DNA from: Amphiscolops sp. MND2022
Taxonomy: Eukaryota
Assembly: GCA_964187785.1 (NCBI GenBank)
Contig: OZ076418.1
Span: 4,712,001-4,776,000 of the forward strand
Reading direction: 5' to 3'
Length of the DNA stretch: 64,000 nucleotides
Part shown: positions 22,178 to 56,791 of the stretch, one piece after another
Layout: every line of letters starts with the position of its first letter
Position numbering within the stretch: position 1 is the first letter of the stretch
Program-made: the position numbers and the translations under genes
The notes under the pieces: model-generated
The model's input: the letters and a program-made list of their open reading frames with translations, nothing else
Told to the model about the DNA's origin: nothing
The model's database searches: none

Positions 22178-24941
22178 TCTATTTGTTTCTGGGCGAATCT
22201 TTACTGCGTCTTCTTTTTTCGCCGGAAAACTTCAACAAATTGTGCTGGACAAAGTTCTTGTAAATTTTATATTTCAATTGAAACTCGATTCGGGGTGAGA
22301 ACAGGCATTAGGTGGAGCATGAGAGGGGAATGTAAGTGAATTCGTTATATAGTCGTGATTAACAACTAATATGTGGGGACGGAATGAGATGGCATCGTTG
22401 AAAATCTTTCTAAGGTTCTTCGCAGGATTGGCAACTCCAAACTTGGCTCAATTGCTGAAAAATTTTTGGAAACAGTTTGATGGGGGACTTGTGGGTAGTG
22501 AAGGCGGTTCCTACATGGCTCCAAACACGTGCAAGTTTCCCGTGGCTGCCTTTCAAAAGCTGCTTTTCTATAGGCGGAAAACAAATAGACTTACGCCTGA
22601 TTAACAGACAACCTAAACGGTATTGTTTGGAAAGCTGGGTGTTACGATCACACATTCATCTTTTTTTTCTTATTTTGAATCGAAGATCAAATAGTACCGT
22701 TTTCACAAGGGTCGTCCATTTTGAGCCGGGAACTGATAGACAATTCGTTAAGGCCGAACATCTTAGGAGCTAGTGTTGAGGATTTTGTACAGTAAATTTA
22801 CAAGAAAAACCGACTGGGGGGTTGGATTGCTGTTACATAACAGTATATAGGCATTATTAGCGTTGAAAGTGAAACAAGGACTAGAAAAACATTTTTACAT
22901 GCTTGAAAAAAATGTATGAGTGGGGAATTGGCAGCAAACTAAAATTCTAGGACTTCAAGGCCACCGCAAAAACATCCTGGGTTTAGTTCATATTGTTGGA
23001 CATGAGGGGTGAATAAAAATTGTCGAAAAATGTTTTGCCTCAAAACGAAAAAAGATTCGGCTCAGTTATTTCGCGAGCAACATTTTATCAAGGGCATTGA
23101 TAATGGCCAACGCGAGTCATCCTGGATAGTCGTTTTGTGCTCTGAAACAATCCCAAAGGCCATGACAAAAAAAGACAACTATTACAATTAAATAGGAAAT
23201 ATCTTCGAGCATGACGACAGTCTTTGATTGTATTAAGTTGCAAAGGTATTTCTGCAAGGGTTGAGGATTCAATACCAGTGTCTTAGGCGGCTGGGCGTAC
23301 GTAATCTTTCAACTCTCCACATTGACCGAAAAGTTCTTATGTTCTGGTATAGCTTTCTGAACACTCGGGATCAAAAGAGCTCAAAGATATCTGCTTTGGC
23401 TTGAACACTGGCGAATTTAATAGCAGTTTCTTTGTTGCGATGAACTTTAATGCACCCCGACTTGGCCCCTTCCAGTCAGACGAAACAACAAAAACTCGAT
23501 AACGAGAACGTTGCTTTCTTGATCCGAGATTCTCAATATAAAAAGTTACTAATATAATCGGGAAGAGCTTCCACAACTGCGACTTTGTTTCTGGTTTCTG
23601 TTTCTTCACTTCACCGAGGGCTCGAAATTTACTGGTTGCCCGTATTCATAAAAGCCATCACCAGCTAGATCGAAATCACAGATGCTTTTAAGGTAATCCA
23701 TTCTAAAGGAAATTTTTTGAAAAAAGTTTATTGTGAATATTTAATGTGTGAATCGATAGTTGAAGTTACCCCAGTTGAATAATAATTGGATGGAATGCTT
23801 TTCCATGATGAAAACCCAATTGTCTGAAACGCTAGAGTTCGTTATAGCTTCAATGCAGATCAGAATGAAGTACTTTTACTTCATGGAAAAATCTCATACC
23901 AGCAAGCTCCAAGTCTTCAAAAACAATTTACTACAGGTTCTATTTGAGTAAAAAGATCAAGTTTCCATCAATCAATCCTGATGTGCATTAAAAACAGTTT
24001 TCAGTACTGAAGCTTTTGGTGGAAGGAGATAATTCTGGGATATGGTATTTTCATACATAAATCTTTCACTAATTCTGATGATGCCTGATGGAAAAAAATT
24101 GCAACAGACTTGTTGAGCACATTGCTCTTGAGAAATTTGCAAAGGATTAATTAAACAAGAAAGGCCTTGAGAATTTAGGCAAAAGTCTGATTGAACAATG
24201 AGCCCCAAAAACAATCAACTCTGCTTTTATTTCAACTACAATATCTGCAGACGGAACTGTAAAACTTGGTTTGGGTTAGCTATTAAATTCTTTCAGTCTC
24301 ATGTCACAGTTTCAGACTAACGCCGTACTCTATGTCTTTTCATCAAAATGACAGTGAAGAAACTATAGAACGTTATAGTCTCTGAAATGTTTCATCAAGG
24401 AAAAATGAGTTCCATCAGTGTATGTTCAAATGAATGTCTCAAACATTACATGAAGCCAAAAAACACCTTTCTTCCTTCTGGCAGCACGCGGGGACCTGGT
24501 TGGGGTGGAAGGTGCTGCTGGCACGGTTGCTGCTGACTCGGGGGGAGTTTCTATTGCCGTGGGGGGACTGTATGAGGCTCGGGAACAGTCTTCTAGAAAT
24601 TGAAACAAGTTAGAAACAGCTTAGAATCTTTCGGTTTTTTTAAATTTTGTGAATAGTAAAACGAGCATGGAAGTTGTTGTATGTTCCAAATTGAGTTTCT
24701 TGCGAGGCTAACAGAATGTCAAAAAATGTTTGTCGTGTGCGACATATGGCAAATAAAAAAAAGAAACTTACCGTGAAAACTCAAAAAGAAATAAACTCAA
24801 AACTTGTAATATGTAATTTTGTCTTTTGTAATTTGCGCAGTTTTATCTTTAATATTTTCTCGCTCAGCTCTGAATTTTGAACACGCTCGAACGTGTTCAC
24901 TACCTTGTTCAGCAACGCCGCACACATTCCTTGTTTGGTCA

Positions 24942-25114
24942 TGACGTCAAATGACATCATTTTGTCGTGGACGCTACGCCTACGAATAACACATACAAAA
25001 CACTTTCGTTTGTATAGTCATTTGACTTGACGTCATATGACGTCATGCTCGCTAGCCAATCACGATAGTGATTCAATTTTATTGGCTGACGAAGCGGTCA
25101 AATTTAGTATAAAA
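24942..25114 (+). promoter_or_regulatory. Putative LTR promoter: three TGACGTCA (CRE) palindromes, CCAAT boxes, TATA box
   Basis: TGACGTCA at 24942, 25028 and 25038; CCAAT at 25056 and ATTGG at 25081; TATAAAA at 25108. Confidence 0.65.
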
Positions 25115-25364
25115 GCAGACGAAATTTTCAACTGTCAGAGCTCTTCTTTTGGAATAATACTAAATCGACAAACCCGACCACTCCAACCTCTCAATCTCTT
25201 TACACGAGTTCAACTCCCATCATCAGCGGCGCAGTATTTTTTAGTTAAAATCTTTTTCAATTTTCTTTTCGGAGCTTTCACTTTCATTTTTTCTAAGTCT
25301 TTTTCTTAACTTAAACTTAAATCAGTAATTCCCAAAATTTTACAAGTCCTGGCTCAATTCTGTC

Positions 25365-25650
25365 TTAGACAATTTTCAACGCTGCTTCAAGTAAAGCAAA
25401 TATAACTTATATTTTTGTCAAGCCTGCTTCCTAGTTGAAGTAATCCTGACTTAGACAATTTTCAACGCTGCTTCAAGTAAAGCAAATTTAACTTATTTTT
25501 TTGTCAAGCCTGCTTCCTAGCTGAAGCAATTTTGACTTGGACAATTTTCAACGCTGCTTGAAGTAAAGCAAATTTAACTTATACTTTTGTCAAGCCTGCT
25601 TCCTAGTTGAAGCGGATTCATCTTAGGCAATTTTCAACACTACTTTCGAG
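25365..25650. repeat. 86-bp tandem repeat (~3.3 copies) inside the LTR
   Basis: Units TT(A/G)GACAATTTTCAACGCTGCTTCAAG...CCTGCTTCCTAG; also present at ~45010-45225. Confidence 0.9.
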
Positions 25651-26651
25651 CCAAAACAATTTCAAGTCTTCTCTCAAGCTAGAGCAATCATTCTCTTACG
25701 TTGGAGATTCAGTTGACTTTTGACTTCGAACAGAAGCTATTATACCGTCTTTGTTCAACAAAGATTGAATAGTCCCTGCTTTATAGTGGACTCTAAACCA
25801 AAGTCTGGTGATATTCACTGACTCTAAACTGAAAACCACAGCCTCAGCTGGGTTATAAGAGACTTAAACAACTTAGCTATTGTCTGATTCTTAAAGTCGG
25901 ACCGTTCTCAACTTGAGACAAAGAGTAGCCGTATAGCGCTCTATAAAAACAGTACAAAGAAGCGTTGTTCTAAAACCAAAGAATAGCCATTCGCTATCTT
26001 TCCCAGTCCGTGACAATCGGTGGACTATAAACACCGTGCAAGCTATTAGCTGCACTTTGGAAAAGAGGCCTAACCTCTGATTATTAAAACACAACATAAT
26101 AAAAACTTTACGGCTTATTTCCTGATAACTTAATCTAATAACGTTTTCCTAGTAACTTAACTTATTTCATTTATGGATTGATATTAAACCAGATTTAGTT
26201 GTATTTTGTTTATTCAGCTTGATTTGTTTGTTTTGCTTTTGTATAACTGATATCTATTACAAGTTTAGTATAAATAGAGAAAGGTTCATTTCACCTATTT
26301 CTGAACCCAAACAATTTTTTCCCGGGTCGCAAAAATAAAGTCCTTCCGTTCGAACTCAAACCTGATATTTCCTTTGTGTAAGTGCTGGAAGGCATATAAC
26401 GAAAATTTTAAGTAGGAGAATAATTTCAATTTTCAGTCAAGAAAATAGAAGGAAAGTGAGCTAAGAGTTCACGAATTAGACAATAATTGAGGCTTATAAC
26501 TACCGAAATTCAAAGAGAAAAACTGAAAGAAGAAAAATCACTAATTTTGAATATTCTTAGAGAAGCTTTCGCTAATTGGAAGAAAGATATAGATTCATCA
26601 ATTTTCCTACCAACTTAACAAGCACCGTCACAAATTAAGCACTTCACAAAC

Positions 26652-26970: not shown

Positions 26971-27019
26971 CTGAGGGAAACTCAGCCACAAGAAGATCTA
27001 AACTGTCACAATTCTGAGA

Positions 27020-27900
27020 ATGGCTCAGAACGCAGTCTCTTTTCCTGATCTAGCTTTGGACAAGTTCTCTGGGAATGACCCAGACCAAGATGTTAAATCA
27101 TTTCTTTTGACAGTCGAAAACAACATAGACTTTTCATTTGGATCACCCCCACACGATGCTGGCGAAGCTGCTAGATATCTCTTCAGAAAAAAAGCACTTT
27201 TCTCATCTCTCCTTCGCGCACCAGCTGCAGAATGGTACGAAGGATTTAACGTAGGTAACCCACTACCTACTTGGATTCAAGTCAGGACAGCTTTCATAAC
27301 TCGCTTCTCAGATGACAGAGACAAATACAGACACAGAATAACTGCTGAAAACTGTGTTAGAGGAAAAGAAGAACTAGTCAAAAATTTCTATCATAGAGTC
27401 AAACAAGCAGTAGACAAAGGATGGCCTATCGATGCCGCAGCTAATCAAAATGAGAGATGCTCAACAAAACTTGAGAAATCAGAAGTATATTGACTTCACA
27501 ATCAGAGGACTAACTCCTTCGGGACTTAAGAGGAAAGCTCATGAATATCTGATAGAACATCCAAATACAACATGGGGCAATTTCAAAGACCATGTCGCCA
27601 ACAAAGACTTGATTTATTCAGTAAGTTCGGAGTTTGTACCAAACTCAACTAATGAGCAGAACTCTAAACTAGACTCGTTAGAAAAACAAGTCAGAGAACT
27701 TTCAACTCTTCTGAAAGAATAACAAGTTAATGCTTTGAATCAAGCCAACACACGAACCAATGATGTGAACAATAAATCCAGACAGAATGCCACACGCTTC
27801 TGTCACTATTGTAGACGAAACGGGCACACTCTACAATATTGCAGAACTAAAGCTTTTGATGACGAACGAAAACGTCAGTACAATCGTGAGAACCAGCAGA
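27020..27900 (+). pseudogene. gag: gag (capsid + CCHC zinc knuckle), frameshifted with a premature stop
   Basis: KFSGNDP...PAAEWY...TW..VRTAFITRFS capsid-like segment; CHYCRRNGHTLQYC is CX2CX4HX4C; frameshift near 27460 and TAA at 27720. Confidence 0.88.
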
Positions 27901-30900
27901 TCTTGTCAACCAATTACAGTAGTGAGAAGTAAACAAAAGACAAGAACATACACTGGAGAAGAAATACCTATGCTGGGTCACACATTACTAAACTTTAGTT
28001 TTGACTCTGATGGACAACACTGTTTTCAACTCCAACTCTGGATAACAGAAACCAAAACAGCAAATTTATTGGGTATCGAATTCTGCAGAAAATATATATC
28101 CAAACTCCACTTCGATATTCCGGCAATAGAACTCAAAGACACTCCTAACACAATTTGCTGTGGCAGCCTTTGTAATACCAAACTTTATCCCTACCTGTCA
28201 CTAATCAGGGCAATACGGATACCGCACCAGATACATATCGACGCTAAGACTTCTCGTGTCTACAAATATCAACCAGAAGATGAACAAACAAATTTTGCAT
28301 CAGGGACTACTTTTATCCCTCATCAAAAAGTAGCCAACTCCGGACTGGACTTTGTGAATGTACTTTGTACGCAATCAGAACAATATCTACCATTTCTAAT
28401 GGAGAACAACAAGAATCATCAAATAACTCTTGACAAAGGAATTTTGGGATATTCATCGCTGGACATACTAGATTTCGAGCGACCAAAATACCAAATAAAA
28501 GACTGTGTTAAAATGGTTGACTGCATACTATCTGAGAATGACCCGTATAACGAATGTTTTCTACTACACTCGACACTGACCCACGAACCAGACTTCAGAG
28601 ATGGCATACGTATCATTAATGGGAACGATGATACAATCTTTGAAATTCAAACAGCCATTGCTCACTGCATATCAGCCGACGCAAAAATGAGTAAAGGATT
28701 CGCCGAAACTATCAGTAACCACATCAGCGGACTACAAGAATATTGCTACAAATCAGAAGCTTTTGTTGGATCAGTCATCCCCTTCTGGGACAATGATGCA
28801 AATAGATTCGTATACAACCTTGTCACAAAGAACAAGTTCTTTGAAAAACCTACCCTTGAGAACCTTCGGATATTACTTGAAAATATGAGAGTCCACGCCC
28901 TGCTCAACAATGTTCAAATAATAACAATGCCAAAAATTGGTTGTGGACTTGATAAACTCCCTTGGAATGAAGTACTTAAAATACTGAAAGACACTTTCAC
29001 TGACTCTGGAATTCTCATTCAAATCATCTCCAGAAACGAGCTGGATTCAAAACAGCCACCAAGCCTACGAACTCAGAAGACTATATTGAAAACGAAATTG
29101 ATAACTATGCAAACGAATGGAAAAATGAAAAGAACGAGCTAGAAACAGACTTCACCAAAGATTCAAAATCATGTCAGCCTCCTTGTAAAGAACAGTTTCC
29201 AATACTGAGACCTAAAGAGCTAAACAATGATCTCATCGACTACTATTTGCAGTACCAACCGCAGGAAATAAAAGACTTTATCAAACAATTCGATTTCCAA
29301 TACACTGACTTAGAAGATGAAGAACTTGTCATGCTGATAGATATGATCATTGACTCCAGAGATGTATATTCACAACACAAATTCGATATTGGTCGAACCA
29401 AACAGAAGTTTCACGTCACTCTGAAACCTAACTCAGAACTTCGCAAACAACGCCCTAGTAAAGTTCCACTTCATCTGAAAGACAAACTTGAAAAACTTCT
29501 CGGACAACTGCAAGAAACCGGCATCATCAGAGAAAAGGGAGACGATGACGAACTCGGCTCACTTTTTGTAAACCCCATCATTCTCTTACCTAAAGCTGTC
29601 TACGTTAAACTTGTCATTGATGCAAGATATCTGAATTCTATCACTGACCTAACAAACTACTCTTGGCCATTCGAACCAGTCCAAATGATTATGACAAGAA
29701 TCAACGGCAATTACTTCACAGCAAGTGCTCTCGTGTGCATATCACCAAGTACCCCTTAGTGAAGAAACTCAGAAACTAACTAGTTTCATCGTAGGTGGAA
29801 AACAATACACCTATCAAGTTGGATTATATGGCCTTTGTGGACTCCCTCAATGGTTCAGCCGAATGATGGCGATTGACTTCGAACCCCTAGTAAAGAAGAA
29901 ACAAGCAATCACCTATCTTGATGATAGTCTTCTCCAATCGCAAACCAAATGCGAGATGTTCACAATCATACACGAATATCACCAACTCTTTCGAAAAGGC
30001 GGACTAAAAGCCGCACCTGGCAAGACACACTTCTTCTTGAGAAAAATAAAATTCCTGGGACATGTTATATCTCAAGATGGAATTCAACCAGTAGCTAAAC
30101 GAGTACAAGACTTGAAAAATTTGAAGTCACCGGAATGCAAACGAGACGTAATGAAAGTACTCGGATGTTTAGGCTTTATAGCTGTTACATCAAGAATCAA
30201 GAAGACACTACACCTTTCAAATAGACCGAACAACACGAAACACTTTTCAACCAGATAAAAGAAAGAATCTCAGAGGATACAATTTTAGCAGTTCCTTCAA
30301 CTGAATAGCCTTTTCATATTCACGTTGACTCTTCGAATGTAGGAACTGGATGTATATTAGTTCAACAGTTTCCAGAAGGAAAACGAATAGTCTCTTTCAA
30401 CTCTCGTGTCTTTGTCAAGGCAGAACAAAAAATGTCTACCCTCCACCGAGAGCTTTGCGGTATTGTATCTGCAGACCTATGAGCATTACATAATCGGCTC
30501 TCCATTTCCAATCTACCTTTACTGAGACCACAAACCCATCCTCTACTTATGGGGACGAAAAGGACAACTTTCTCATCGGTTCTTCAAGTACCAAGTTATA
30601 ATAACAAAATTTCACAACTTGAAGATAATCTGGACGCCAGGCTCAAACTTAGCATTCCCAGATATACTTAGCCGAAATGTAACACTGTGCGACATCAACA
30701 AATTACAGCGACAGCATAAAGAAATACCGAGAGATATCATTTTATGATGAAAAGGGAGACCAGATGCATTACACTATCAAACACGAAGATAGCCAAGATA
30801 TCTCATGCAATGACTTCTTTCCAATAATATGCCAACACGGGAACGATAGACAAATTCTACACCTGGAGAATGACGGTGACGAGCAGTATATTGAAGACTA

Positions 30901-33177
30901 CATTGAAGACAATGAAGTCTTAGCTACAATGCAAAACATGACCGATTGCTTTATACTCGGCAAGACAATAAACCAATATAAACGACTTTGCTCAGATGTT
31001 TGTCCCTACTTCACAAACTACACCATCGAAGAAGAAACCTACAGCGAAATTGAAGAACAACAAGATGACGGCTACAACAGTGACAACGAAATTGCAGAAC
31101 TAAACTTCGATCAGAAGGACTCCGAATTCTTACACTTGCAAACGAATCAATCCGAAGAAACAAGTCACAAAAACCAATTCTAAAATCCAACATAGACTCA
31201 GAATTACACCCAGAGGTAGATACAAAGGAATTGATACAAAAATTGAGTGACTTTGCAAAAACTGCTGATTTAGATGTAACTACATTAGTTGAAGAACAAC
31301 TCAACGACCCAGTACTACAAAAAGTACGCAGTTGGATAAAGAAATCAGATAAGCGACCAACAAAAACACATGACAACAATCAATCTAAAGCACTACTATC
31401 ATACTTCAATAGATTCGAGCAACTCTTTATAGACGAAGAAACCAACCTCTTATGCTACAACGACACAGTTCAAGAAACAAACAAGACTGAGATGAAATAA
31501 TGTGTTCCCCTATCACTGTTTCTACCACTTTTTAAACTTGCTCACACACACAGTCACAAGGGTCATCCCGGAATATTCAAAACCTTTGAAAATGTTAGAC
31601 AACTTCTTTTGGCCAGGACGATACAAATGGATTGTTTATCTCAGAAGATTGCATTGAATGCCAAATCAATAAGTCAAAACGTCATGACTTACACGAAGCT
31701 CCATTGGAACAATGGGGAGAACTTGAAACTACACCCTTCAAAACAATTCATATAGACCATAAAGGCCCGCTTAGGCCTAGTAGCAATTCGAACAATCATT
31801 GCTTAGTAGTAGTTGACGCGTTTTCAAGGTTCATTGGTGTCTACCCAGTTAAAGACACTAGCTACTATCACTGCATTAGAAAAATGGATCACATCTTATG
31901 GCATTCCTCAGAAAATAATACACGATAACGGGAAAGCATTTATCAACAGTGACTTCATCAACTGGACTAAAGAATTCGGAATAACTCTTGCACCACGAAC
32001 AACATACCATGGACAAACGGAAAAGTAGAAGTACAAAATCAGCACCTTACACGATATTGGAGAAACTTCACTAACGAGTCAGGTAACAATTGGTCAAAAC
32101 TAGCACCGAAGTTTGCATTCGCTCATAACACAAGCGTAAACTACACAACAGGACTTACCCCATATGAAGTAGTGTTCGGGACAAAACCACAAGTTCCTAT
32201 GACGTTAAAACTTGGACTAATACGAGACAAAAATCTTGCGATCTCGCAGATCCGAATATTGCGAAGGATTGAAACCCCATACACACAGCGAAAATCAGCT
32301 ATCGAACAAATCCCTGGATCGATTACTCAGACCACAACTTTCAGACGAACTTATTGCTCGCGAAAATGACTTCAAACGAATCTATTCGTCAACCTATCAA
32401 CGATGCCGACAAATCACTTCTAAAGCACACGAATACAGGAACCGATTCAAACTCGGACGACCTATCAACATTGGACAAAAAGTATTCTTAGAGAATCACA
32501 CTGCCGACTTGAGCAGATCACAAAAATTAAAACAATTACGTGTTGGCCCTTTTACAGTCACTAAACAAATAACAAATACGACCTACGAAATTCAAGAGGA
32601 CGCTAATCCTGATAATATCAAAGTTACTCATCGGAATCACCTGATTGAATACTTTCCTAAAGAGGAAAGACTCCCTCCTTTAATCACTAACTACGCGCCG
32701 CCTATAACAAAAGATAGTGATTTCTACAAACATTTAGTGCAGTCGCAAATTAATGACTATAATTCAAACCAACAAAGATTTTCCCTAGATGTAATGCCTT
32801 TTATCATATCGCCGCTACAAGAAAAAACTAACATTCACGAATTGAACAAAAATCACGCTGCACTTTCACCTAACGCTGATTCAGGAATTCAATCTCCTTC
32901 TACGCCTACCAATGATGATCACAATTATCAAAATCGAACTATTTCACCATTGCCGCCGCTACAAACTCCTATACTCCCTATGACTCCTATGCCTATTCGT
33001 GTTCCTACTATTTTGAGGACAACACCGCAATTTCATGAAGCTGAACAATCTACTTCTTCATCGTCAAAAAAGAGAAATAAAGTTGCTGATATTACATCAA
33101 AAATAAAAGCAAAATACAAACGCTCCGATCCTGATAGCTCACTACGGAAATTAGAAAGAAGGGGATATAAAGATTAA
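27900..33177 (+). pseudogene. pol: pol: partial protease, dUTPase-like spacer, macrodomain, RT, RNase H, integrase with GPY/F tail; multiple disablements
   Basis: PR C-half (TYTGEEIPMLG...NLLGIEF), with no catalytic DxG segment visible; RT LVIDARYLN, YHQVPL, TYLDD, FLGHVIS; RH HVDSSNVGTG, ELCGIV, DHKP; IN HxxxGH/CIEC, IHIDHKGP, HDNGKAF, NGKVEVQN; VGPFTVTK. Confidence 0.92.
28600..29034 (+). CDS. TARG1/OARD1 (Poa1p-like) macrodomain embedded in Pol
   Basis: IAHCISADAKMSKGFA...YNLVTK...KPTLENL...MPKIGCGLDKLPW closely follows recalled OARD1 LAHCISEDCRMGAGIA...YYLITK...KPTYENL...MPRIGCGLDRLQW. Confidence 0.9.
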
Positions 33178-36100
33178 ATTATAAAGGGAAAGGGAAACAA
33201 AAATTATAAGGAGAGATTTCCGATTAACGTAACAAAAACGCAAATACAACAAATATCTATACATATATACAATCAGGGAAGCAAGGGCCCAATGGTTTCC
33301 ATTTCCATGTAAGCTTGTTCAACTAGGAAATTCACAAATTGCTGCTGGTTCCCCATCTCCCAACGCACCACTAACTCTCGCTTCGCCAATGGGGACAAAG
33401 CCAAATACGAAGTTCGAATTGTCTCTAACTTGAAGAAAAACACCTCTCCCACTGAGGACGCTCAACCACTGAAACAGAACAACTTGTATATAAAAGAGGA
33501 AAAATTGACTTCTACTTGACAGCACAAGTACAATCACATCACTATACATCATACGACTATAGAGAAGTACCAAAAAGGTATATTAAAAAACAAAAAGACA
33601 TTCTTACGAGGAGTTCCAGTGACAATTCCCAAAATTGCCTGAAAACGATCACTAAGATCGACAGGAATAGCTGCATCCATCCCCAACATCGGACGACGAC
33701 TATCAGCTATTACCTGCTTGAGTGATCTTAATTCGTTTTGACAGATAATTGCCGGCCATACATGTTCCCCATAATCTACTACAGGAATCATATCTGACGG
33801 AAGAAAATGCGGATGAACGACAGGAGGATTGAGAGCCATATAAGTCTTAAAACACACAGATTGAATTTTCACTTTCAGCACCCCTCTACCTCAAAAATTT
33901 CCCAGCTACCCAACCCAAAAATTTGCGAACGCACAAACCGAACAAAATTCACAACTTTTCTTTTTCGTTCAACGGCGGTGGGACTACTTTGTAGTTATAT
34001 AGTCAGTAGAAATCAAAAAAAAACAGAAATTAACACCCGAAAAACACCCGACCTAACAGCCCAGAAACAGCAGATAAAATGAAGAAAACAAAGAAGAAAA
34101 ACAACAAAAGCCCCAATAAACAATCTCTACCCATCTGTGTTATACTCACATTGTATCTTTTAATCTAAACAAATGTCACATTTGCTTCCTTTAATTTACG
34201 CTTTTGTTGAAATAAAAGAAAAGAAAATCTTTTGTTAAACTCTCTTTTGTCAGTTGAAGGTTAACGTTTTATCTTTGTTCATTTTCAGATAGTCATCTTT
34301 TCAACTCTCCTCTTCGAATTTAGCTATTGTTCATAATAACATATTTTTCTTTTCAGCTAGCAATAAACAAATTTGCTCAACTTACCTTTTCTCTGCTGTG
34401 ACCGAAAATAATTTCTTCTTAGCTTTTTAATTACCTTTCATTTTAGCTGCCAAGCTCTTCAACCTCACACTTATTCAATAGTATAGATTATTCCCACTAG
34501 CAAGCTCCGCTGTTGCCAACGGAGACGAATTATAAATTCTCTTTTAACTCCTTAATTACCTTTTATTTTAGCCGCCAAGCTCTTCAACCTCTCACTTAAT
34601 CGATAACATAGAATATTGCCTCTTACAAGCTCCGCTGTTGCTAACAGAGATGAATTCTCTTTTAACTTTAACTCTTTAATTATCTTTTTTTAACTACCGA
34701 CGAATTCAACTAATGATTTTTGCCCCCCAAGCTCCTTTGTTTTGAGCAAAAAGTAAATTTTGAACTAGTTCTTTAGCCATCGCTTTTGTAAGATTCTAAA
34801 ATGAATTTTACAGAGTAAGTCGAAGCGCATGGTTTTGTTTGTATTTTAGCAAAGCTTACAACTACACAATCAACTGACGAATCTAGCAGCAAATGTACCT
34901 CAAGATAAACAACGACTTCTACAGGATAATAAAATCAGAGTTAAGAAATCAAACTTTTCACGTCCTTCTACAACACCATCAGGCTAAAGAAGACTGCTGA
35001 TTTAGATGTAACTACATTAGTTGAAGAACAACTCAACGACCCAGTACTACAAAAAGTACGCAGTTGGATAAAGAAATCAGATAAGCGACCAACAAAAACA
35101 CATGACAACAATCAATCTAAAGCACTACTATCATACTTCAATAGATTCGAGCAACTCTTTATAGACGAAGAAACCAACCTCCTATGCTACAACGAGACAG
35201 TTCAAGAAACAAACAAGACTGAGATGAAATAATGTGTTCCCCTATCACTGTTTCTACCACTTTTTAAACTTGCTCACACACACAGTCACAAGGGTCATCC
35301 CGGAATATTCAAAACCTTTGAAAATGTTAGACAATACTTCTTTTGGCCAGGACGATACAAATGGATTGTTTATCTCATAGAAGATTGCATTGAATGCCAA
35401 ACCAATAAGTCAAAACGTCATGACTTACACGAAGCTCCATTGGAACAATGGGGAGAACTTGAAACTACACCCTTCAAAACAATTCATATAGACCATAAAG
35501 GCCCGCTTAGGCCTAGTAGCAATTCGAACAATCACTGCTTAGTAGTAGTTGACGCGTTTTCAAGGTTCATTGGTGTCTACCCAGTTAAAGACACTAGCTA
35601 CTATCACTGCATTAGAAAAATGGATCACATCTTATGGCATTCCTCAGAAAATAATACACGATAACGGGAAAGCATTTATCAACAGTGACTTCATCAACTG
35701 GACTAAAGAATTCGGAATAACTCTTGCACCACGAACAACATACCATGGACAAACGGAAAAGTAGAAGTACAAAATCAGCACCTTACACGATATTGGAGAA
35801 ACTTCACTAACGAGTCAGGTAACAATTGGTCAAAACTAGCACCGAAGTTTGCATTCGCTCATAACACAAGCGTAAACTACACAACAGGACTTACCCCATA
35901 TGAAATAGTGTTCGGGACAAAACCACAAGTTCCTATGACGTTAAAACTTGGACTAATACGAGACAAAAATCTTGCGATCTCGCAGATCCGAATATTGCGA
36001 AGGATTGAAACCCCATACACACAGCGAAAATCAGCTACCGAACAAATCCCTGGATCGATTACTCAGACCACAACTTTCAGACGAACTTATTGCTCGCGAA

Positions 36101-38730
36101 AACGACTTCAAACGAATCTATTCAACCTATCAACGATGCCGACAAATCACTTCTAAAGCACACGAATACAGGAACCGATTCAAGCTCGGACGACCTATCA
36201 ACATTGGACAAAAAGTATTCTTAGAGAATCACACTGCCGACTTGAGCAGATCACAAAAATTAAAACAATTACGTGTTGGCCCTTTTACAGTCACTAAACA
36301 AATAACAAATACGACCTACGAAATTCAAGAGGACGCTAATCCTGATAATATCAAAGTTACTCATCGGAATCACCTGATTGAATACTTTCCTAAAGAGGAA
36401 AGACTCCCTCCTTTAATCACTAACTACGCGCCGCCTATAACAAAAGATGGTGATTTCTACAAACATTTAGTGCAGTCGCAAATTAATGACTATAATTCAA
36501 ACCAACAAAGATTTTCCCTAGATGTAATGCCTTTTATCATATCGCCGCTACAAGTAAAAACTAACATTCACGAATTGAACAAAAATCACGCTGCACTTTC
36601 ACCTAACGCTGATTCAGGAATTCAATCTCCTTCTACGCCTACCAATGATGATCACAATTATCAAAATCGAACTATTTCACCATTGCCGCCGCTACAAACT
36701 ATACTCCCTATGACTCCTATGCCTATTCGTGTTCCTACTATTTTGAGGACAACACCGCATTTTCATGAAGCTGAACAATCTACTTCTTCGTCGTCAAAAA
36801 AGAGAAATAAAGTTGCTGATATTACATCAAAAATAAAAGCAAAATACAAACGCTCCGATCCTGATAGCTCACTACGGAAATTAGAAAGAAGGGGATATAA
36901 AGATTAAATTATAAAGGGAAAGGGAAACAAAAATTATAAGGAGAGATTTCCGATTAACGTAACAAAAACACAAATACAACAAATATCTATACATATATAC
37001 AATCAGGGAAGCAAGGGCCCAATGGTTTCCATTTCGTCAATTTCCATGTAAGCTTGTTCAACTAGGAAATTCACAACTTGCTGCTGGTTCCCCATCTCCC
37101 AGCGCACCACTAACTCTCGCTTCGCCAATGGGGACAAAGCCAAATACGAAGTTCGAATTGTCTCTAACTTGAAGAAAAACACCTCTCCCACTGAGGACGC
37201 TCAACCACTGAAACAGAACAACTTGTATATAAAAGAGGAAAAATTGACTTGTACTTGACAGCACAAGTACAATCACATCACTATACATCATACGACTATA
37301 GAGAAGTACCAAAAAGGTATATTAAAAAACAACAAGACATTCTTACGTGAGGAGTTCCAGTGACAATTCCCAAAATTGCCTGAAAACGATCACTAAGATC
37401 GACAGGAATAGCTGCATCCATCCCCAACATCGGACGACGACTATCAGCTATTACCTGCTTGAGTGATCTTAATTCGTTTTGACAGATAATTGCCGGCCAT
37501 ACATGTTCCCCATAATCTACTACAGGAATCATATCTGACGGAAGAAAATGTGGATGAACGACAGGAGGATTGAGAGCCATATAAGTCTTAAAACACACAG
37601 ATTGAATTTTCACTTTCAGCACCCCTCTACCTCAAAAATTTCCCAGCTACCCAACCCAAAAATTTGCGAACGCACAAACCGAACAAAATTCACAACTTTT
37701 CTTTTTCGTTCAACGGCGGTGGGACTACTTTGTAGTTATATAGTCAGTAGAAATAAAAAAAACAGAAATTACCACCCGAAAAACACCCGACCTAACAGCC
37801 CAGAAACAGCAGATAAAATGAAGAAAACAAAGAAGAAAAACAACAAAACCCCCAATAAACAATCTCTACCCATCTGTGTTATACTCACATCGTATCTTTT
37901 AATCTAAACAAATGTCACATTTGCTTCCTTTAATTTACGCTTTTGTTGAAATAAAAGAAAAGAAAATCTTTTGTTAAACCCTTTTTTGTCAGTTGAAGGT
38001 TAACGTTTTATCTTTGTTCATTTTCAGATAGTCATCTTTTCAACTCTCCTCTTCGAATTTAGCTATTGTTCATAATAACACATTTTTCTTTTCAGCTAGC
38101 AATAAACAAATTTGCTCAACTTACCTTTTCTCTGCTGTGACCGAAAATAATTTCTTCTTAGCTTTTTAATTACCTTTCATTTTAGCTGCCAAGCTCTTCA
38201 ACCTCACACTTATTCAATAGTATAGATTATTCCCACTTGCAAGCTCCGCCGTTGCCAACGGAGACGAATTATAAATTCTCTTTTAACTCCTTAATTACCT
38301 TTTATTTTAGCCGCCAAGCTCTTCAACCTCTCACTTAATCGATAACATAGAATATTGCCTCTTACAAGCTCCGCTGTTGCTAACAGAGATGAATTCTCTT
38401 TTAACTTTAACTCTTTAATTATCTTTTTTTAACTACCGACGAATTCAACTAATGATTTTTGCCCCCAAGCTCCTTTGTTTTGAGCAAAAAGTAAATTTTG
38501 AACTAGTTCTTTAGCCATCGCTTTTGTAAGATTCTAAAATGAATTTTACAGAGTAAGTCGAAGCGCATGGTTTTGTTTGTATTTTAGCAAAGCCTACAAC
38601 TACACAATCAACTGACGAATCTAGCAGCAAATGTACCTCAAGATAAACAACGACTTCTACAGGATAATAAAATCAGAGTTAAGAAATCAAACTTTTCACG
38701 TCCTTCTACAACACCATCAGGCTAAAGAAG
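31261..38730 (+). repeat. Internal tandem duplication: copy 1 31261-34992, copy 2 34993-38730
   Basis: Near-identical ~3.73-kb copies with junction AAAGAAG|ACTGCTG; both contain integrase, the Pol tail and the downstream spacer. Confidence 0.95.
35230..36907 (+). pseudogene. Second (duplicated) integrase/Pol C-terminus
   Basis: ORFs 35440-35664, 35549-35764 and 35972-36907 mirror those of copy 1. Confidence 0.9.
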
Positions 38731-38831: not shown

Positions 38832-38840
38832 TGGTATTTA

Positions 38841-39197
38841 ATGATGAACATAATTTTTGATGAAGGCGAAATTGATGAAGTAGAATTCAACTGCCCTTGG
38901 AAAATAACAACTCCTTCAGGCAATTCCGAAAATTTTATAATTACCAAACTTAGGTGGTCACAAATATCACCTTGTTTCATCTCCGTGACACTACACCCCA
39001 CTAGCGGCAAAAATGAAGTAACTACCTTTGAAGTCGCAGAAGATAGTTTTCTTGAAGCCCAACTTTCTAAAGCACTAAGCGAATACCTTCGGAATCCAGA
39101 ACAACACGTTGAACAGTATCACCTCCACGTTCTTGGGGAGCTAACTGATACAATAGCCCCATTGATGTATTCAGAAAACACTGACAAAAGCAGCTAG
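38841..39197 (+). CDS. Accessory ORF c1, 118 aa, unrecognised domain (paralogue 1)
   Basis: Aligns by eye with c2: EVxFNCPxKITTPSGxxENFII...QLSxALxxY...PExH...LHxLGE. Confidence 0.75.
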   Translation: MMNIIFDEGEIDEVEFNCPWKITTPSGNSENFIITKLRWSQISPCFISVTLHPTSGKNEVTTFEVAEDSFLEAQLSKALSEYLRNPEQHVEQYHLHVLGELTDTIAPLMYSENTDKSS

Positions 39198-39199
39198 AT

Positions 39200-39499
39200 A
39201 TGAACTTTCACCGTAATAACGAAGTTACCGAAGAAGTCAATTTTAACTGCCCCTTTAAAATAACTACTCCTTCAGGCATCACTGAAAACTTCATTATCAT
39301 CAGACTCAAGTTGTCCTTTACCAAACCCAGTTTCATTTTGATAACAATACACCCTGTAAATAATAAAAGCAAAGTCTCCACTTTAGAAATCGCTAGTAAT
39401 AGATTCCTCCGAGAACAACTATCTGAGGCTTTGGATGATTACGCTGAAGAACCAGAATCACATATCACCCAATTTCAACTCCACATCCTTGGAGAGTAA
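39200..39499 (+). CDS. Accessory ORF c2, 99 aa (paralogue 2)
   Basis: Starts 2 nt after the c1 stop; same conserved motifs as c1. Confidence 0.75.
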   Translation: MNFHRNNEVTEEVNFNCPFKITTPSGITENFIIIRLKLSFTKPSFILITIHPVNNKSKVSTLEIASNRFLREQLSEALDDYAEEPESHITQFQLHILGE

Positions 39500-39530
39500 G
39501 CCGACACAACAGCAGCATAAAGAAAATCGA

Positions 39531-39653
39531 ATGAGCTTCAGCTTACGTGAGCAAATCATTAGACAAGTCTGGATCAGGAACATCCTCCCACAACTACACC
39601 CTCAGGTATCTAGAAATCAACTTCCTCAAAACTTAACCCGAAAACGACAATAA
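39531..39653 (+). CDS. Accessory micro-ORF, 40 aa, basic C-terminus
   Basis: MSFSLREQIIRQVWIRNILPQLHPQVSRNQLPQNLTRKRQ, packed tightly between c2 and c3. Confidence 0.35.
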   Translation: MSFSLREQIIRQVWIRNILPQLHPQVSRNQLPQNLTRKRQ

Positions 39654-39661
39654 ATCAACAA

Positions 39662-40060
39662 ATGTTCATTCACAATCTCTGGGAAGAAGACGCAATTGAG
39701 ACAGTTAAACTAAAACTTCCAGTATCGATATACAGTTTAATCGACCCCATCAAAAGCCCTGAACTACTAATCATTAAAGAATTGCAGTGGTCATACCGAT
39801 ACCAGTTCTGGCTGACAGCTAGAGGCTATACAGTATTAAAACCAAAAACTAAAGTCTCCATAAGAGTAGAAGAGAAAACGAAATTCTTTGCCGAATTAGC
39901 CATTGCTTTATCAACCTATATTGACAGTCCTGAAACGAACATACAACCCTTCGACCTACCACTCCTAGACGAATTGTCTTCTTTTATGGAAACAGGACTG
40001 GGTTCCTTCGAAGAATTCTACACTGCTAAAATAAAAGAAATCCTCAGCTTGCAAAAATAA
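39662..40060 (+). CDS. Accessory ORF c3, 132 aa (diverged paralogue 3)
   Basis: ETVKLKLP...LIIKELQWS...ELAIALSTYIDSPETNIQPFDLPLLDEL parallels the c1/c2 pattern; AATAAA follows at ~40114. Confidence 0.65.
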   Translation: MFIHNLWEEDAIETVKLKLPVSIYSLIDPIKSPELLIIKELQWSYRYQFWLTARGYTVLKPKTKVSIRVEEKTKFFAELAIALSTYIDSPETNIQPFDLPLLDELSSFMETGLGSFEEFYTAKIKEILSLQK

Positions 40061-40146
40061 ATCTGTTCTCTGCTTTTTATTATTTTCCCCTTTAATACTG
40101 TGTACTGTGATTAAATAAACTTTTACTCAACTACTTCTTTTCAGGT

Positions 40147-40874
40147 GCAAGACACGGTAACGATCTTAGTATCAAACTCTGCCGTGTATTAATAACTCCC
40201 TGCTCTCATTTTTCATCGATCTAAAATAGATCACGTTTCTCTAGCAGGAAGGCACGGGTTCTGGACGTGCGTATTCAATTTTATCCTTGCAAGAAGACGC
40301 GGTAACGATATCTGTATCAATCTCTGCCGTGTATAAATAACTCCGTTGCATAGCTCAACGAAGATACGGTGTATTGACGTATATTACAATTTTTGTCACA
40401 AAGTTTGACAAAGACACGGTAACGATCAAACGACGGTTTGCATCAAACTCTGCCGTGTATAAATAACTCCCTGCCTTTATTCTTTTCATTGATCTAAACT
40501 GGCCATTTAGAGCATTTTTTCTTTGGTAGGAAGACACGGGTTTTGGACGTGTAGCCTTGCCTTTACTTAACTTTTTTTAACTCTCTCTTTCTCAGGCAAG
40601 AAGAGACGGTAACGATCTTAGTATCAATCTCTACCGTCTATAAATAACTCCCTGCTCCTATTTTCTTTTCTTCTTTGTCTCAAAGAGATCCTTTTTCTTT
40701 AGCAGGACGACACAGGTTTTTAGACGTGTGCTACATTACCTTGCAAGAAGAGACGGTAAAGACCTAAGTGTCAAACTCTGCCGTCTATAAATAACTCCTG
40801 GCTACTCCTCACTTTTGTCTGTTTCAAACAGAACACTTTTCTAAAGCGGGAAGACACGGTATCTAGACGTGTAT
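40147..40874 (+). ncRNA. Array of five covarying three-hairpin structured modules (unclassified cis-acting RNA candidate)
   Basis: Modules at ~40147, 40289, 40409, 40596 and 40743, with compensatory changes in all three stems. Confidence 0.65.
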
Positions 40875-41155
40875 TCAAAAGAGCCTTTCACGAAAAGGAC
40901 TATCATCCATTTGCTTTTGACTAAATTGTCAATTTTCAGCAGAATTCATTCTTGCTCTCTTTTCAGTTCAATTTGAACAAATCATCTGTATTGCCAAGTG
41001 CTACAGATTTCTCGCTGCTCTATTGAAAGCAAAGCGGCTCTTCTCATTGCTTCATCGAAAGCAAAACATTCTCTTCATTTCAAGGTTAGCAAGTCTACCT
41101 TTCTATTTCTAAACCGTTTATAGTATTTTCGGAGTACCGTTTTCATTAGTAGATA

Positions 41156-43289
41156 ATGGATAGTGAAAAGATATACTGTAAATATTTGGTTACTTTCATT
41201 TTGATACTTTCAATAAATCCCATCTACACCGACAAAAAGCAGCCTATACTGGATGATATCGCACCTACAGTCACAGTCTCACATTACGATTGCAGTGAAA
41301 TGTCAGAAAACAATCTCTACTCTCTCAACCAAGTCAAACCCTACAACGTGGCTCCTGAGAACATAGACATGAGCTATGCCAAAATCAAGATGTATACAAA
41401 ACATTTTCGAACAGAGATTAACGCTACCATATGCAGCGTCAAACATCAGAGAAACAGATTCTATTGTGGAATGCATGACCATTCCAGCATCGATATCAAA
41501 CAAAAGACAATTACCTCCTATCTCGATTTAACGCCTGCACAATGCAGACTTGCAGCTGAAGGATCACCAATAACTCTACTAAATCATCAAATTACAATGA
41601 AAAAAGGGATTATTGAACAACATCTTAGATGGAATGGCGACGCAGACGACACATTTAAAAATGAATGTGATGGCTTTGAGTGGATTGAAAAAGATACTTT
41701 CGAGACTCACATCCAAGACATTACTCTGAATGTCAAACTCTAAGATGGAACTATAATGAATAGAAATGGACAACCTCTACCCTGCAAACTAGACGAACTG
41801 GGATGTGACAGCACTTCACTTGACCCATATGCTTATGTGTGGGACAATCCAGACAATTGTATTCTTACCGTACTGAAAGAAGATTACGTAAACATGCTCA
41901 AAATTGACGATCAATACTATATTGTTAGCCGAAACGATTCAGAAAACAAATACCTCTTTGAAATCAAAAACAGACCACAAAAGTTTTGTAATAAACCGTC
42001 AGATGTATATCCTACAACTTATGAATCTTTGTTTGTTGCCATCCTTTATGGTGGATTCGACATGAAAACAGGACGAAATATGATTCAACAAGAAGACAAA
42101 GTCCACAAGATGGTCTATTCCCCTAATAACCAAGAAAGAGATGAACCAGGTCATAGCAAACTCTGGGTTGCCAGTAACCATCATTCAAACCCATATTTTG
42201 GAACATGGTTGAACGTGGACTACGAATTACAACAGGCAACTAAACTGGACTATCTTTTCTTTGAGAGCTCCAGAGCGCTCAAAGCCTCAGAACTTCATCT
42301 TTTAAAAAATCAGTGTGAACAAGAACGATCGCACATACTCACTATTCTAATGCTTTCACTTGAAAACTCAAGACTAGCTGGATATATGATAACTGGAAAC
42401 AGATCAATGTTCTTAGAAAATGATGGAAGCCTTTCATGGCTTTACTCTTGTCCTCTAGTCAGATACCCTCTTCATACGATGAACGGGTGCTACGATAAAA
42501 TACCCATCTTTTACAAAGGACAAATCAAATTTGTAGATCCCATCACAAGGCAAACTTTACCTGATGCAATGCCTCAGAAATGTTCGGATCACATAAAGAA
42601 CCTTTTTCAAATGGACATGGACGATAAGAACTCTTGGTTCTCACTAACACCACAGATCACACAGAGATAGACCTGCTATCTTTTCGCCAAAAGATGTAGC
42701 ACCATTCACAAGGGACAAGTTCCCTCAATCAATCAACGCTGGAATGTACACGAAAGGCCAGCTAACTGAATTTTGGGACAACATCCTCATGAGTTCTGCG
42801 TCGAAGAATGCCTTACAAAAGTTCACAAGAAAACTCATTGTCCCTTCACAATCAAAGAATGGACCTGGAGGATACACATACTAGGCACCCAAAATGGATT
42901 TCATTGTTGATAACATGATATCTCCTGGTTACTTCGAAAACAAATTTAGACAAACATTTGGCACAATTGGATATTGGCTAGAAAAATATTTTATTTGGTT
43001 TGCAGTTTTCCTTTTTATAAAATTTATTATTGATGTGACAGTAACTATCGTCAGAGCATTCGAGATACACCGACTTACTGGAGCATCTATTGGATTTGGT
43101 AAAATCCTACTCTCTGCAACTTACAATCTATTTATGGTTTCCATCTTTCATTCGATGTTCAACCCCACTACAAAAGATGTTCCAATGACAACATTCAGCA
43201 CTGACAACCAAGATGCCTCTGAACACATCTATCCTGTCATAAACCGTCTACCACCTACTAATCGTTTAGATACAATATCTCCTATTTAA
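41156..43289 (+). pseudogene. env: env-like glycoprotein resembling chuvirus (Jingchuvirales) G / class III fusion proteins; two stops and one frameshift
   Basis: Signal-peptide-like N-terminus; HYDCS...LYSLNQV; CSVKHQRNRFYCGMHDH; LTPAQCR; AGMYT..QL; C-terminal hydrophobic segments. TAA at 41741, frameshift at ~42663, TAG at 42882. Confidence 0.82.
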
Positions 43290-43314
43290 CTTTTGTACTC
43301 TGTTTTAGCAAAGA

Positions 43315-44772
43315 ATGACCGACCACACTTCTCTTTCATCAGATCTGGAACTTCTCTCAAAAGAAACTCTAACAGAGAAGGATATACTCGATTTTCCTAG
43401 GTTTGATATCACCTCAGGCGAATCTCCTATTCCTCAACAAACACTTAATCAAACTCTCTTAGAAGGCACTATTACTCCTCCAAACCGCCCTAATACATTT
43501 ATCTTTAACGGCAGTATTAAAAAGAAGAAAACTCAATATTCGTTGAGACAAGCACTTGGAAAACAAAAAAAAAGTGAAGAAGCCGCCGAAAATTATTCAA
43601 AAACGAGAAACCCCAGAATTCATTACAACCTCCACTATACACTTAGAGAAGACGTCAATCAGTGGAAAATTATTTTCTGGGATTCAAGGAGACAAGAATT
43701 TACTACTGAAAACACCGTTCTTAAGAACCAGAGACTATCAGTACCCCTCGGGCTATCTCTGCTTTCATTTGAAAACAAAATGAAAAAACAATTAATAGAA
43801 GAACTCAACCTTAGATTAGCCGCCATGGAAAATGAAATTACAACACTACAAAATCAAATAACAAATCTCAGCCAACCTACATACACCAACGACGACATCA
43901 CCCAGATGAAGATGCTTATTAGCAAGTTCCCAATTAGCAACCTCAAAAACGCACAATATCTGCATGCAACACAATTACAAGTTGCAAACCTTTCCGAACA
44001 ACTGGAACATGAAAGGAATCTACGAAGACAACAAGATAGAAATATTCAGCAACTTCAAACTAATATTCAAAACCTTCAGACTATCATTCACGAGAAGTTA
44101 ACTACAACACAATCAGTAGAACAACCTGTAAATACTCCTCTCTTTACCCCTCCTTCAACTGAACCCGAATCAACAGATGCTCAAAAACAACTTGCTGAAC
44201 TAAAACCCCCTAAAAGACTAACAATGGATCTTTATGATCGTATTCACAGCATTGATTGCGGAAGAAACAAAAAGCTAATCTGGAGAATTAGCTCCTCCAG
44301 CCTTATGTTTGATAGCGCAAAGGCTGCTGAACTAGAAAGGCAAAAAGGCGTCGACCCGCACCCCAAAATACCTTGTAGTTTTCACAGCCCTCCATTTCAC
44401 ACTTCAACTCACGGGTACCGCTTTGATATGAAATTTTATCCTTATGGATGTTCTCCTGCTACTGGAGAAAGCGCTTCACTAGTCATCAACATCCTTCCTG
44501 GCGAATTCGACCCAATCCTCTCTTGGCCTTTCAAACTAATCTTCCGAATTTATGTAATCAATTTGAGTGAGCCCAGTGATATCTGGACAAAAATAGTAGA
44601 TCCAAAAGACAACCAAAATTCAGCTTGTTTTATATGACCTTGTACAAGCTATGGGAACCCGAGCATATGCTTCCCCTTTCTGATCCCACAGAGCCAACTC
44701 TTCAAAAGCAACTCCCCATTCATTCTGAATGATACGATGTTCATCGAAGTCAACCTGGAAGAATCAGAATGA
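43315..44772 (+). pseudogene. Retroelement-encoded coiled-coil + TRAF-C (MATH) protein without RING, 485 codons with one internal TGA
   Basis: Coiled-coil heptads, then LIWRIS...FHSPPFHTSTHGYRFDMKFYPYG...GEFDPILSWPFK...F(R)P...FILNDTMFIEV, the TRAF-C signature. TGA at 44635 lies where the conserved FxRP arginine is expected. Confidence 0.88.
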
Positions 44773-44827: not shown

Positions 44828-45473
44828 TGTCGTGTGCGACATATGGCAAATAAAAAGAAAGAAACTTACCGTGAAAACTCAAAAAGAAATAAACTCAAAA
44901 CTTGTAATATGTAATTTCGTCTTTTGTAATTTGCGCAGTTTTATCTTTAATATTTTCTCGCTCAGCTCTGAATTTTGAACACGCTCGAACGTGTTCACTC
45001 CCTTGTTCAGCAAATTTAACTTATATTTTTGTCAAGCCTGCTTCCTAGTTGAAGTAATTCTGACTTAGACGATTTTCAACGCTGCTTCAAGTAAAGCAAA
45101 TTTAACTTATATTTTTGTCAAGCCTGCTTCCTAGCTGAAGCAATTTTGACTTGGACAATTTTCAACGCTGCTTCAAGTAAAGCAAATATAACTTATACTT
45201 TTGTCAAGCCTGCTTCCTAGTTGAGTAAAATTTTAAGTAGGAGAATAATTTCAATTTTCAGTCAAGAAAATAGAAGGAAAGTGAGCTAAGAGTTCACGAA
45301 TTAGACAATAATTGAGGCTTATAACTACCGAAATTCAAAGAGAAAAACTGAAAGAAGAAAAATCACTAATTTTGAATATTCTTAGAGAAGCTTTCGCTAA
45401 TTGGAAGAAAGATATAGATTCATCAATTTTCCTACCAACTTAACAAGCACCGTCACAAATTAAGCACTTCACT
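44828..45473 (+). repeat. 3' LTR with two internal deletions (646 bp)
   Basis: Matches 5' LTR segments ~24731-24914, the 86-bp repeats and ~26402-26648; the promoter block is missing. Confidence 0.9.
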
Positions 45474-53560: not shown

Positions 53561-53563
53561 CCC

Positions 53564-56500: not shown

Positions 56501-56791
56501 GTCCAAACTTGTATAAACTCGAAATATGATTACATGCACTGTATCATCAATCTTGGCTTTGGGGCCATTACTTCGGTAATTTTGGTCAACGTAGGCTTTT
56601 AGTCTGATGTCATTCTCAACTATGGTAGCGGCCGATAAAGCTAACGCCGCCACGAGAGTGATGATGGGATGGACTGAGAGAAGAAAAAGTTTCATTCAAC
56701 GGAACGTTGAGAATGTCTGCAAAAGTTTTTTTCAGATTCCAACTGAGAGAACTTTGTTTTACTTACAGAATATGGAACAAAATGCGTGAGA
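53564..56791. repeat. Tandem triplication of a ~1.08-kb decayed coding-like unit
   Basis: Units start at 53564, 54640 and 55719. The minus strand carries RCLLCKQDVKIASRGITTFLEHCRGIRH, a BED/U1-like zinc finger. Confidence 0.9.

Follow-up and report, generated by a model that had tools for sequence, protein, structure and literature searches.

An env-carrying element with a tandem array between pol and env

The window, that is the whole stretch of 64,000 nucleotides of DNA analysed here, forms part of a 1.07-Gb eukaryotic genome. Between positions 24731 and 45473 it holds an LTR element flanked by a 4-bp target duplication, and where the ends of its two LTRs match, their identity is about 99%. 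LTRs, a primer site, the order gag, RT, integrase and an env-like fusion gene are all present (Table 1) and, judged by its sequence, the element is a young, env-carrying member of the Ty3/Gypsy group. The gag and pol pieces match PF03732 and PF01661 (both below the cut-off), PF00078 and PF22938, and env matches PF24664, the Monjiviricetes fusion family. Three small paralogous accessory ORFs and an array of five structured modules lie between pol and env.

Table 1. Features of the element in the window and of related loci (locus numbers are given for features outside the window)
Feature	Position	Strand	Basis or remark
5' LTR (TG...CA)	24731..26648	+	LTR end match; primer-binding site from 26652
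gag and pol pieces (gag, macrodomain-like, RT, integrase), split over several frames	27002..33177	+	Pfam
Tandem duplication (3.7 kb) covering the end of integrase and the DNA behind it	31258..38730	+	present in this copy
Three small paralogous accessory ORFs	38832..40060	+	last ORF 39662-40060; no Pfam family
AATAAA poly(A)-type signal	40056..40061	+	overlaps the stop of the last accessory ORF
ATG-free leader, accessory stop to env start	40061..41155	+	third acceptor-like AG at 40965-40966
Acceptor-like site (pyrimidine tract plus AG) immediately ahead of module 1	40120..40144	+	AG in 32/32 copies
Module 1	40152..40270	+	core 40152-40198; P2 with pyrimidine-rich internal loop; P3
Module 2	40297..40382	+	core 40297-40343; short P2; P3
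Module 3	40414..40552	+	core 40414-40469; additional inner stem, itself doubly changed
Second acceptor-like site (tract plus AG), ahead of module 4	40570..40595	+	AG in 32/32 copies
Module 4	40604..40729	+	core 40604-40650
Module 5	40751..40872	+	core 40751-40797
env, gB/chuvirus-type fusion protein, broken in this copy	41156..43289	+	PF24664, E 8e-12 and 3e-14
MATH-domain ORF after env	43309..44637	+	PF21355, E 1e-15
3' LTR with internal deletions	44828..45473	+	LTR comparison
Accessory protein family members	window 38832-40060; loci L064, L066, L069, L110		
Second-type modules with two pseudoknot-like pairings, before env	L069:6042-6350, L104:995-1448, L110-L125, L103:80-182		

In its Ty3/Gypsy affiliation, its gag-pol-env order, its gB/chuvirus-type env and the need of env for an RNA of its own, the element resembles the errantiviruses with HSV/gB-type env (excerpts of PMC13524379) and the Tor elements of Oikopleura (excerpts of PMC4402516). 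Unlike both, it carries accessory ORFs and RNA arrays between pol and env. According to the excerpts of the Tor paper (PMC4402516), env RNA is made there by splicing or from an internal promoter; those of the errantivirus paper (PMC13524379) contain no mention of splicing, subgenomic RNA, intergenic or accessory elements or an IRES.

Several other features of the window were recorded. The weak macrodomain match (PF01661) is located at 27769-29142, ahead of RT, and a MATH/TRAF-domain ORF is found inside the element downstream of env. This copy of the element has 125-nt repeats at 34427-34688 and 38166-38427, and 86-nt repeats occur inside the LTRs (25355-25645 and 45009-45224). Outside the element there are a 13-copy satellite of a 226-nt unit (11443-14441), a region (48622-56734) with a LINE-type endonuclease-RT ORF (50066-52903, minus strand) and a C2H2 zinc-finger ORF (48978-49748, minus strand) together with three 1,077-nt tandem copies, and a Tc1/mariner element (61046-63095) whose 59-nt inverted ends are perfect and whose transposase frame is open.

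Fold and covariation of the modules

A preceding sequence-only reading had described a five-copy array ahead of env. All five modules were located in the sequence, and every pair that had been listed for P1, the inner stem, P2, P3 and the extension of copy 3 is present. The core of about 50 nt is laid out as P1, an asymmetric inner loop, an inner stem, an apical loop of 6-7 nt and an A-rich tail. In modules 1, 3, 4 and 5, P2 encloses a pyrimidine-rich internal loop of 12-14 by 10-13 nt. Among the five window modules both sides are changed in 6 of 23 pairs, and 98% of the 112 cells pair. This covariation was matched by 0 of 500 shuffles and slid partners yielded 0-1 double-changed pairs, a control that favours the fold because the structure was read off the same five sequences. 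P3 was considered as an alternative partner of P1 and dropped, since it does not track the P1 change.

The folding energy of the individual modules corresponds to z-scores of -0.4 to -3.0, with similar values on the minus strand, and the inner stem is missing from the minimum-energy fold of module 1; folding energy by itself is weak evidence for the fold. The core alone folds somewhat better on the plus than on the minus strand. Together with a T.G pair that stays invariant in P1 and a leader purged of ATG (see below), this points to the sense strand as the RNA that would act.

Selection across genomic copies

For 40 of 256 genomic candidates the array region was scored; it was present in all 40, near full length and with 92-100% identity, and five cores were found at 37 of the 39 loci examined. 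At loci L131 and L158 the module-5 core also occupies position 4, a sign of exchange between modules. The sequence-only reading had proposed an alignment of modules from genomic copies. Thirty-seven copies were given for this alignment, of which 5 were left out as they did not span the region. Variants present in at least 3 of the remaining 32 copies were counted as shared and were likely inherited through replication, singletons being likely the result of decay after insertion. At the 207 stem sites there was no shared variant, next to 39 singletons. Shared variants were seen at 5 of 205 core sites (P1, inner loop, inner stem and tail) and at 1 of 168 sites in the stems, junction and loop of P2 and P3. 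Within the module, variation is highest in the internal-loop part of P2 (shared variants at 28 of 179 sites), and non-core sites of the same query showed shared variants at 50 of 387 sites with 105 singletons. The corresponding Fisher tests (p 2e-10 for stems, 2e-6 for shared versus singleton variants) are indicative only, since the sites have a common subfamily history and the copies were chosen by likeness to this region.

Furthermore, in the 32 copies double changes are fixed by module position. For pair 2 of P1, modules 1-3 have C-G and modules 4-5 have G-C; for the inner pair, module 5 has C-G where the other four have T-A. A pair of the extra stem of module 3 is A-T in 17 and G-C in 14 of the 32 copies. 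The change of P1 that had been reported for copy 4 holds insofar as the pairs are present, but the A that makes T.G into T-A is near-private to the window, T.G being kept in 30 of 32 copies; a few further letters in this array are near-private as well. Selection on an RNA fold, as the earlier reading had suggested, is supported by the alignment of genomic copies, the covariation and the ATG-free sense leader. The array is real and under selection as a sense-strand RNA fold.

A sister family reduced to the core

A model of the whole module gave weak tandem matches at 7 of 20 other env-bearing loci. These represent a sister family whose env is 60% identical to that of the family in the window, and whose arrays consist of the first hairpin and A-rich tail alone, in 6-14 tandem copies at a spacing of 50-62 nt and with neither P2 nor P3. 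The three-hairpin module described earlier is present in the window array, but it is not the conserved unit; what the families share is the hairpin with its tail, and this sequence comparison identifies the hairpin-plus-tail core as the conserved unit and P2 and P3 as family-specific. With the units masked, the flanks of the two core families align only as short matches of at most 45 nt. The 19 distinct units contain one both-sides change in P1 and one in the inner stem. Between the two core families, conservation of the unpaired tail and inner loop equals that of the stems, as tertiary contacts would lead one to expect.

A 30-letter core pattern had 845 exact matches in the genome as compared to 0 for a control, and the seven places inspected belong to the two core families; with a changed pair in the middle of P1 the pattern had 0 matches in the same genome. 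The core is so far known from one genome, and env relatives in other assemblies are 68-72% identical; over related animal assemblies env identities span 55-72%. In the viral contigs searched there were 0 matches to the core pattern and 0 env relatives among 32 candidates. Four single matches in bacterial and archaeal genomes, with about 1.8 expected, were taken as chance; three are without the outer stem, and none is arrayed or has the tail. Nine nucleotides of the LTR that are complementary to the 5' strand of P1 were also discarded, as they occur only in the LTRs of this family and are absent from the sense strand of the sister-family stretches compared. At locus L156 three arrays of the sister family fall within 10 kb, spaced about 4 kb from one another, and a tandem duplication is their likely origin.

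Neutral tandem duplication of a palindromic stretch, or an array that binds at the DNA level, would account for whole-module z-scores that are modest and not strand-specific, and slippage clearly alters copy number in the sister family. Such an origin is largely refuted, and we consider it very improbable, by the lack of shared stem variants in spite of the singletons at the same sites, by the double changes fixed per module, by the invariant T.G pair and by conservation across families with unalignable flanks.

The P2 internal loop raises the question of an ENE, in which a pyrimidine-rich loop would bind the poly(A) tail in a triple helix as the main job of the array. The stem-flanked loop of four modules is similar to the ENE that stabilises the RNA of the Evade retrotransposon (excerpts of PMC12501189). 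Where an ENE has a U-rich internal loop on both strands between its stems, however, the P2 loop is C-rich; it also lies far from the 3' end and outside the env 3' UTR, is missing in module 2 and in the whole sister family, and is the part of the module in which shared variants are most frequent, which makes an ENE quite unlikely.

A second module type in the sister clade

Two further families, with env 54-60% identical to that of the core families, carry a different module in the same place in 1-3 copies (Table 1). It comprises a stem with a 6-nt loop that pairs to a strand beyond an A-rich linker, followed by two or three hairpins; a second long-range pairing joins the first of these to the 5' flank. 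Both sides are changed in 8 of 30 pairs among 20 such units. The metagenome contig L103 contributes one copy with one more double change and, with this copy added, both sides are changed in 4 of 6 pairs of the pseudoknot stem; its env is 75% identical to a protein whose best identity in this genome is 59%. The second module type covaries better than the five-module array itself. Its pattern had 0 matches in the viral contigs searched.

In the env tree one branch, which is not firm (87/87), unites the two core-bearing families; the second-type families are its sister (92/91), and all of them together fall inside a 100/100 clade. The module models matched none of nine more distant env loci. Eight mapped distant loci have env after pol with little or no room for accessory genes, and families with env directly after pol carry no array. 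Both module types share the plan of a stem, an A-rich tail and further hairpins. Sequence homology between them was not detected, 1 of 20 pairs reaching p below 0.05 against shuffles. Since the types align no better than shuffles, the second type is an analogy to the core and not a proof for it.

Stop codon, poly(A)-type signal and ATG-free leader

AATAAA or ATTAAA is found within 40040-40075 in 30 of the 32 copies. Both core families show the order stop codon, AATAAA, acceptor-like AG 85-93 nt on and array; second-type families have no AATAAA directly upstream of the array. In all four families the arrays begin 40-100 nt past a stop, and in three they end 25-70 nt before a start. Module 5 ends 280 nt before the env start in the window, and the sister-family array precedes another small ORF and lies 1.3 kb from env. 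The 1,095-nt leader contains 0 ATG as compared to about 10 expected and 17 on the other strand, a count whose independence is lowered by the repeats. The LTR is likewise depleted of ATG (7 vs 20). No ATG occurs in 40145-41150 in 24 of 32 copies, and the sister family is ATG-free over 651-935 nt. Two small related hairpins are located at 41009-41065, between the third acceptor and the env start.

The long stretches free of ATG in both core families, together with the spacing of the arrays from stop and start codons, would suit a translation element, be it internal ribosome recruitment, reinitiation after an accessory ORF or a scanning throttle. Any scanned leader is expected to purge ATG, however, and the conserved acceptors offer an ordinary spliced route to env. 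The distance from module 5 to env in the window and the position of the sister-family array ahead of a small ORF also speak against this explanation, which we regard as unlikely. A dicistrovirus-type intergenic IRES places a pseudoknot directly before the first codon. The 280 nt that separate module 5 from env, and the lack of a match in Rfam, set the array apart from this type. The IRES-like element for env that had been proposed from the sequence is therefore less likely, as no structure abuts the env start and the sister-family array stands ahead of another ORF.

Control of splicing or 3'-end formation was considered as well. Here the folds would mask weak GTAA (donor-like) and AG sites, or reduce use of the poly(A) signal upstream, and thereby balance full-length against env RNA. 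Acceptor-like AGs stand before modules 1 and 4 and before most sister-family units, P1 contains G/GTAA, and P2 has as its 3' strand a pyrimidine tract that terminates in AG. However, the P1 sites match fewer than 6 of the 9 letters of the donor consensus, and hiding a site needs a stem but not an invariant inner loop and tail. We rate this reading as more doubtful than a role in translation.

Accessory proteins and a possible binding platform

The accessory proteins form a family of 105-155 aa, encoded between pol and env with several paralogues per element (73 cluster representatives). Searches of Pfam and PDB and of the Atlas gave no match or no usable match, respectively, and no fold or RNA-binding feature was assigned. 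The paralogues of the two core families are related (23-58%), those of the second-type clade differ, and arrays were found only in elements with accessory ORFs.

These data bear on a multivalent protein-binding platform, in which the inner loop would bind a host export factor or the element's own accessory proteins and so promote the export, stability or packaging of RNAs retaining the array, in a Rev- or CTE-like manner. Sequence conservation of inner loop and tail across families, a copy number of 5 to 14 as for an avidity array, the restriction of arrays to elements with accessory ORFs, and accessory proteins that differ between the clades as the RNA type does are all consistent with it. 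The co-occurrence of protein and RNA type follows the tree, though, and amounts to one event, and the proteins offer no recognisable RNA-binding feature. Export elements between pol and the 3' LTR are known, and the letters AAGACA recall the CTE motif, but they are not kept in the sister family. With CTE, RTE and the MusD MTE the array has in common that it is structured, lies after pol and has sequence-conserved inner loops, many splice sites and repeats. Unlike these elements it matches no Rfam family and is placed in the env leader, therefore being kept in the spliced RNA, and export is only a candidate role here. Neither a catalogued CTE or RTE model nor a conserved NXF1-binding loop was found in the array. 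We consider such a protein-binding or export array possible, as a close second to the exonuclease roadblock discussed below. Export and nuclease resistance had both been proposed by the earlier reading, and both are kept here as candidate functions. If accessory proteins bind the array, this would be a Rev-like system in an invertebrate retroelement.

Relation to known RNA families

The comparison with Rfam, also proposed by the earlier reading, was run and matched no family. Even with E allowed up to 10, nothing beyond chance matches was obtained for this array, for that of the sister family or for the second module type; for the array of the window, Rfam 15 returned four unrelated ones far below the gathering scores, and the hammerhead, HDV-like, twister, twister sister, pistol and hatchet models had no match. 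Ribozymes occur in other retroelements (excerpts of PMC8501958), and small, conserved, possibly pseudoknotted modules might be expected of self-cleaving RNAs. The new ribozyme that had been suggested is nevertheless highly unlikely because of the missing Rfam match and because 5-14 cutters in the middle of the genomic RNA would presumably destroy it as a template for reverse transcription.

The literature searched, which excluded repeat databases and supplements, contained no description of tandem structured RNA between pol and env of an LTR retrotransposon, and no relevant report joining exoribonuclease resistance, trans-splicing or transport elements to such retrotransposon RNA folds. The array is filed as a cis-acting structured RNA between viral genes that belongs to no known family. 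Two uncatalogued covarying folds are thereby added to the few cis-acting RNA structures described from LTR retrotransposons, and both are linked to the way in which RNA for the downstream genes is produced by an env-carrying element.

Stacked exonuclease roadblocks as a proposed explanation

The explanation that we rank first, though still tentatively, is that the five folds may act as stacked roadblocks that stall 5'-3' exonucleases and save the RNA of the downstream genes. The long transcript would at times be cleaved, either at the internal poly(A) signal or through decay or slicing, and its downstream piece would be left without a cap. The core would adopt a compact shape, its tail returning alongside the stem and perhaps pairing with the apical loop, and Xrn2 or Xrn1 would stall at these folds, more surely with more copies. 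The protected piece would then be spliced or otherwise capped at an acceptor and scanned to env, while reverse transcriptase, arriving from the 3' side, would pass the folds; P2 and P3 may be family-specific supports. A compact fold is suggested because the conserved unpaired tail behind the stem corresponds to the loop of the covarying pseudoknot in the sister clade, and protection of downstream RNA is suggested because the array sits behind a cleavage signal. The first acceptor is upstream of the array and so would lie outside its shielding.

Excerpts of PMC12397905 and PMC6299227 describe plant-virus xrRNAs as small stem-loops in which the 3' end base-pairs with the apical loop and which often sit between genes ahead of coding RNAs, and flavivirus xrRNAs as resistant from the 5' side while letting polymerase through from the 3' side. 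Frameshift-type pseudoknots do not stall Xrn1 (excerpts of PMC10321173). The core has the outline of class 3 xrRNAs as given in excerpts of PMC12397905, PMC7668246 and PMC6299227: about 50 nt with a stem, an asymmetric inner loop, a short second stem, an apical loop and a single-stranded 3' tail with possible loop pairing, in an intergenic position ahead of a coding gene. Unlike class 3 xrRNAs, it occurs as a tandem array in an LTR retrotransposon, its resistance is only predicted, and its loop-tail pairing of 3-4 bp (4-9 bp in the class, by the same excerpts) is without covariation. The T-loop (L2B) with its docking inner-loop G or C that these excerpts describe is absent, as the 6-7 nt apical loop has no room for it, and so is the AGY motif before the 3' pseudoknot strand, the core tail being A-rich.

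Loop and tail of the core can form 3 bp, or 4 in one variant; 96.5% of the cells pair, with 0 both-sides changes in 19 units. A loop variant that breaks it is present in 10 of 102 sister-family units, with a compensating tail in 1 of the 10. Module 3 is without the pairing loop, and TGT is found there in 8 of 191 family units. The putative loop-tail pseudoknot of the core is unproven.

The order of features is also reminiscent of nematode operons, in which downstream RNA is shielded from XRN-2 after cleavage via the Ur element (excerpts of PMC7725455). As in the intercistronic regions described there, a stop and an AATAAA are followed by a pyrimidine-rich stretch, an acceptor about 90 nt on and the next gene. 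Unlike those regions, the array is far larger and mostly past the first acceptor. A broader and more speculative proposal is that the whole clade may be operon-like, its transcript being cut at an internal poly(A) signal and two new types of nuclease-resistant fold, in two sister lineages, saving the downstream RNA. If true, this would be the first case of xrRNAs in LTR retrotransposons, and the scaffold would be new among xrRNAs.

Should the folds block exonucleases, the range of xrRNAs would widen from RNA viruses to include retroelements, and a roadblock that is short and can be stacked would make a useful tool. The core size of about 50 nt makes Xrn1, binding, probing and reporter tests simple. 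As a separate observation, a third kind of repeat is found just before the sister-family env (L066:5960-6400 and L063:5950-6310), consisting of three units of about 150-190 nt that start at acceptor-like sites and hold a short hairpin.
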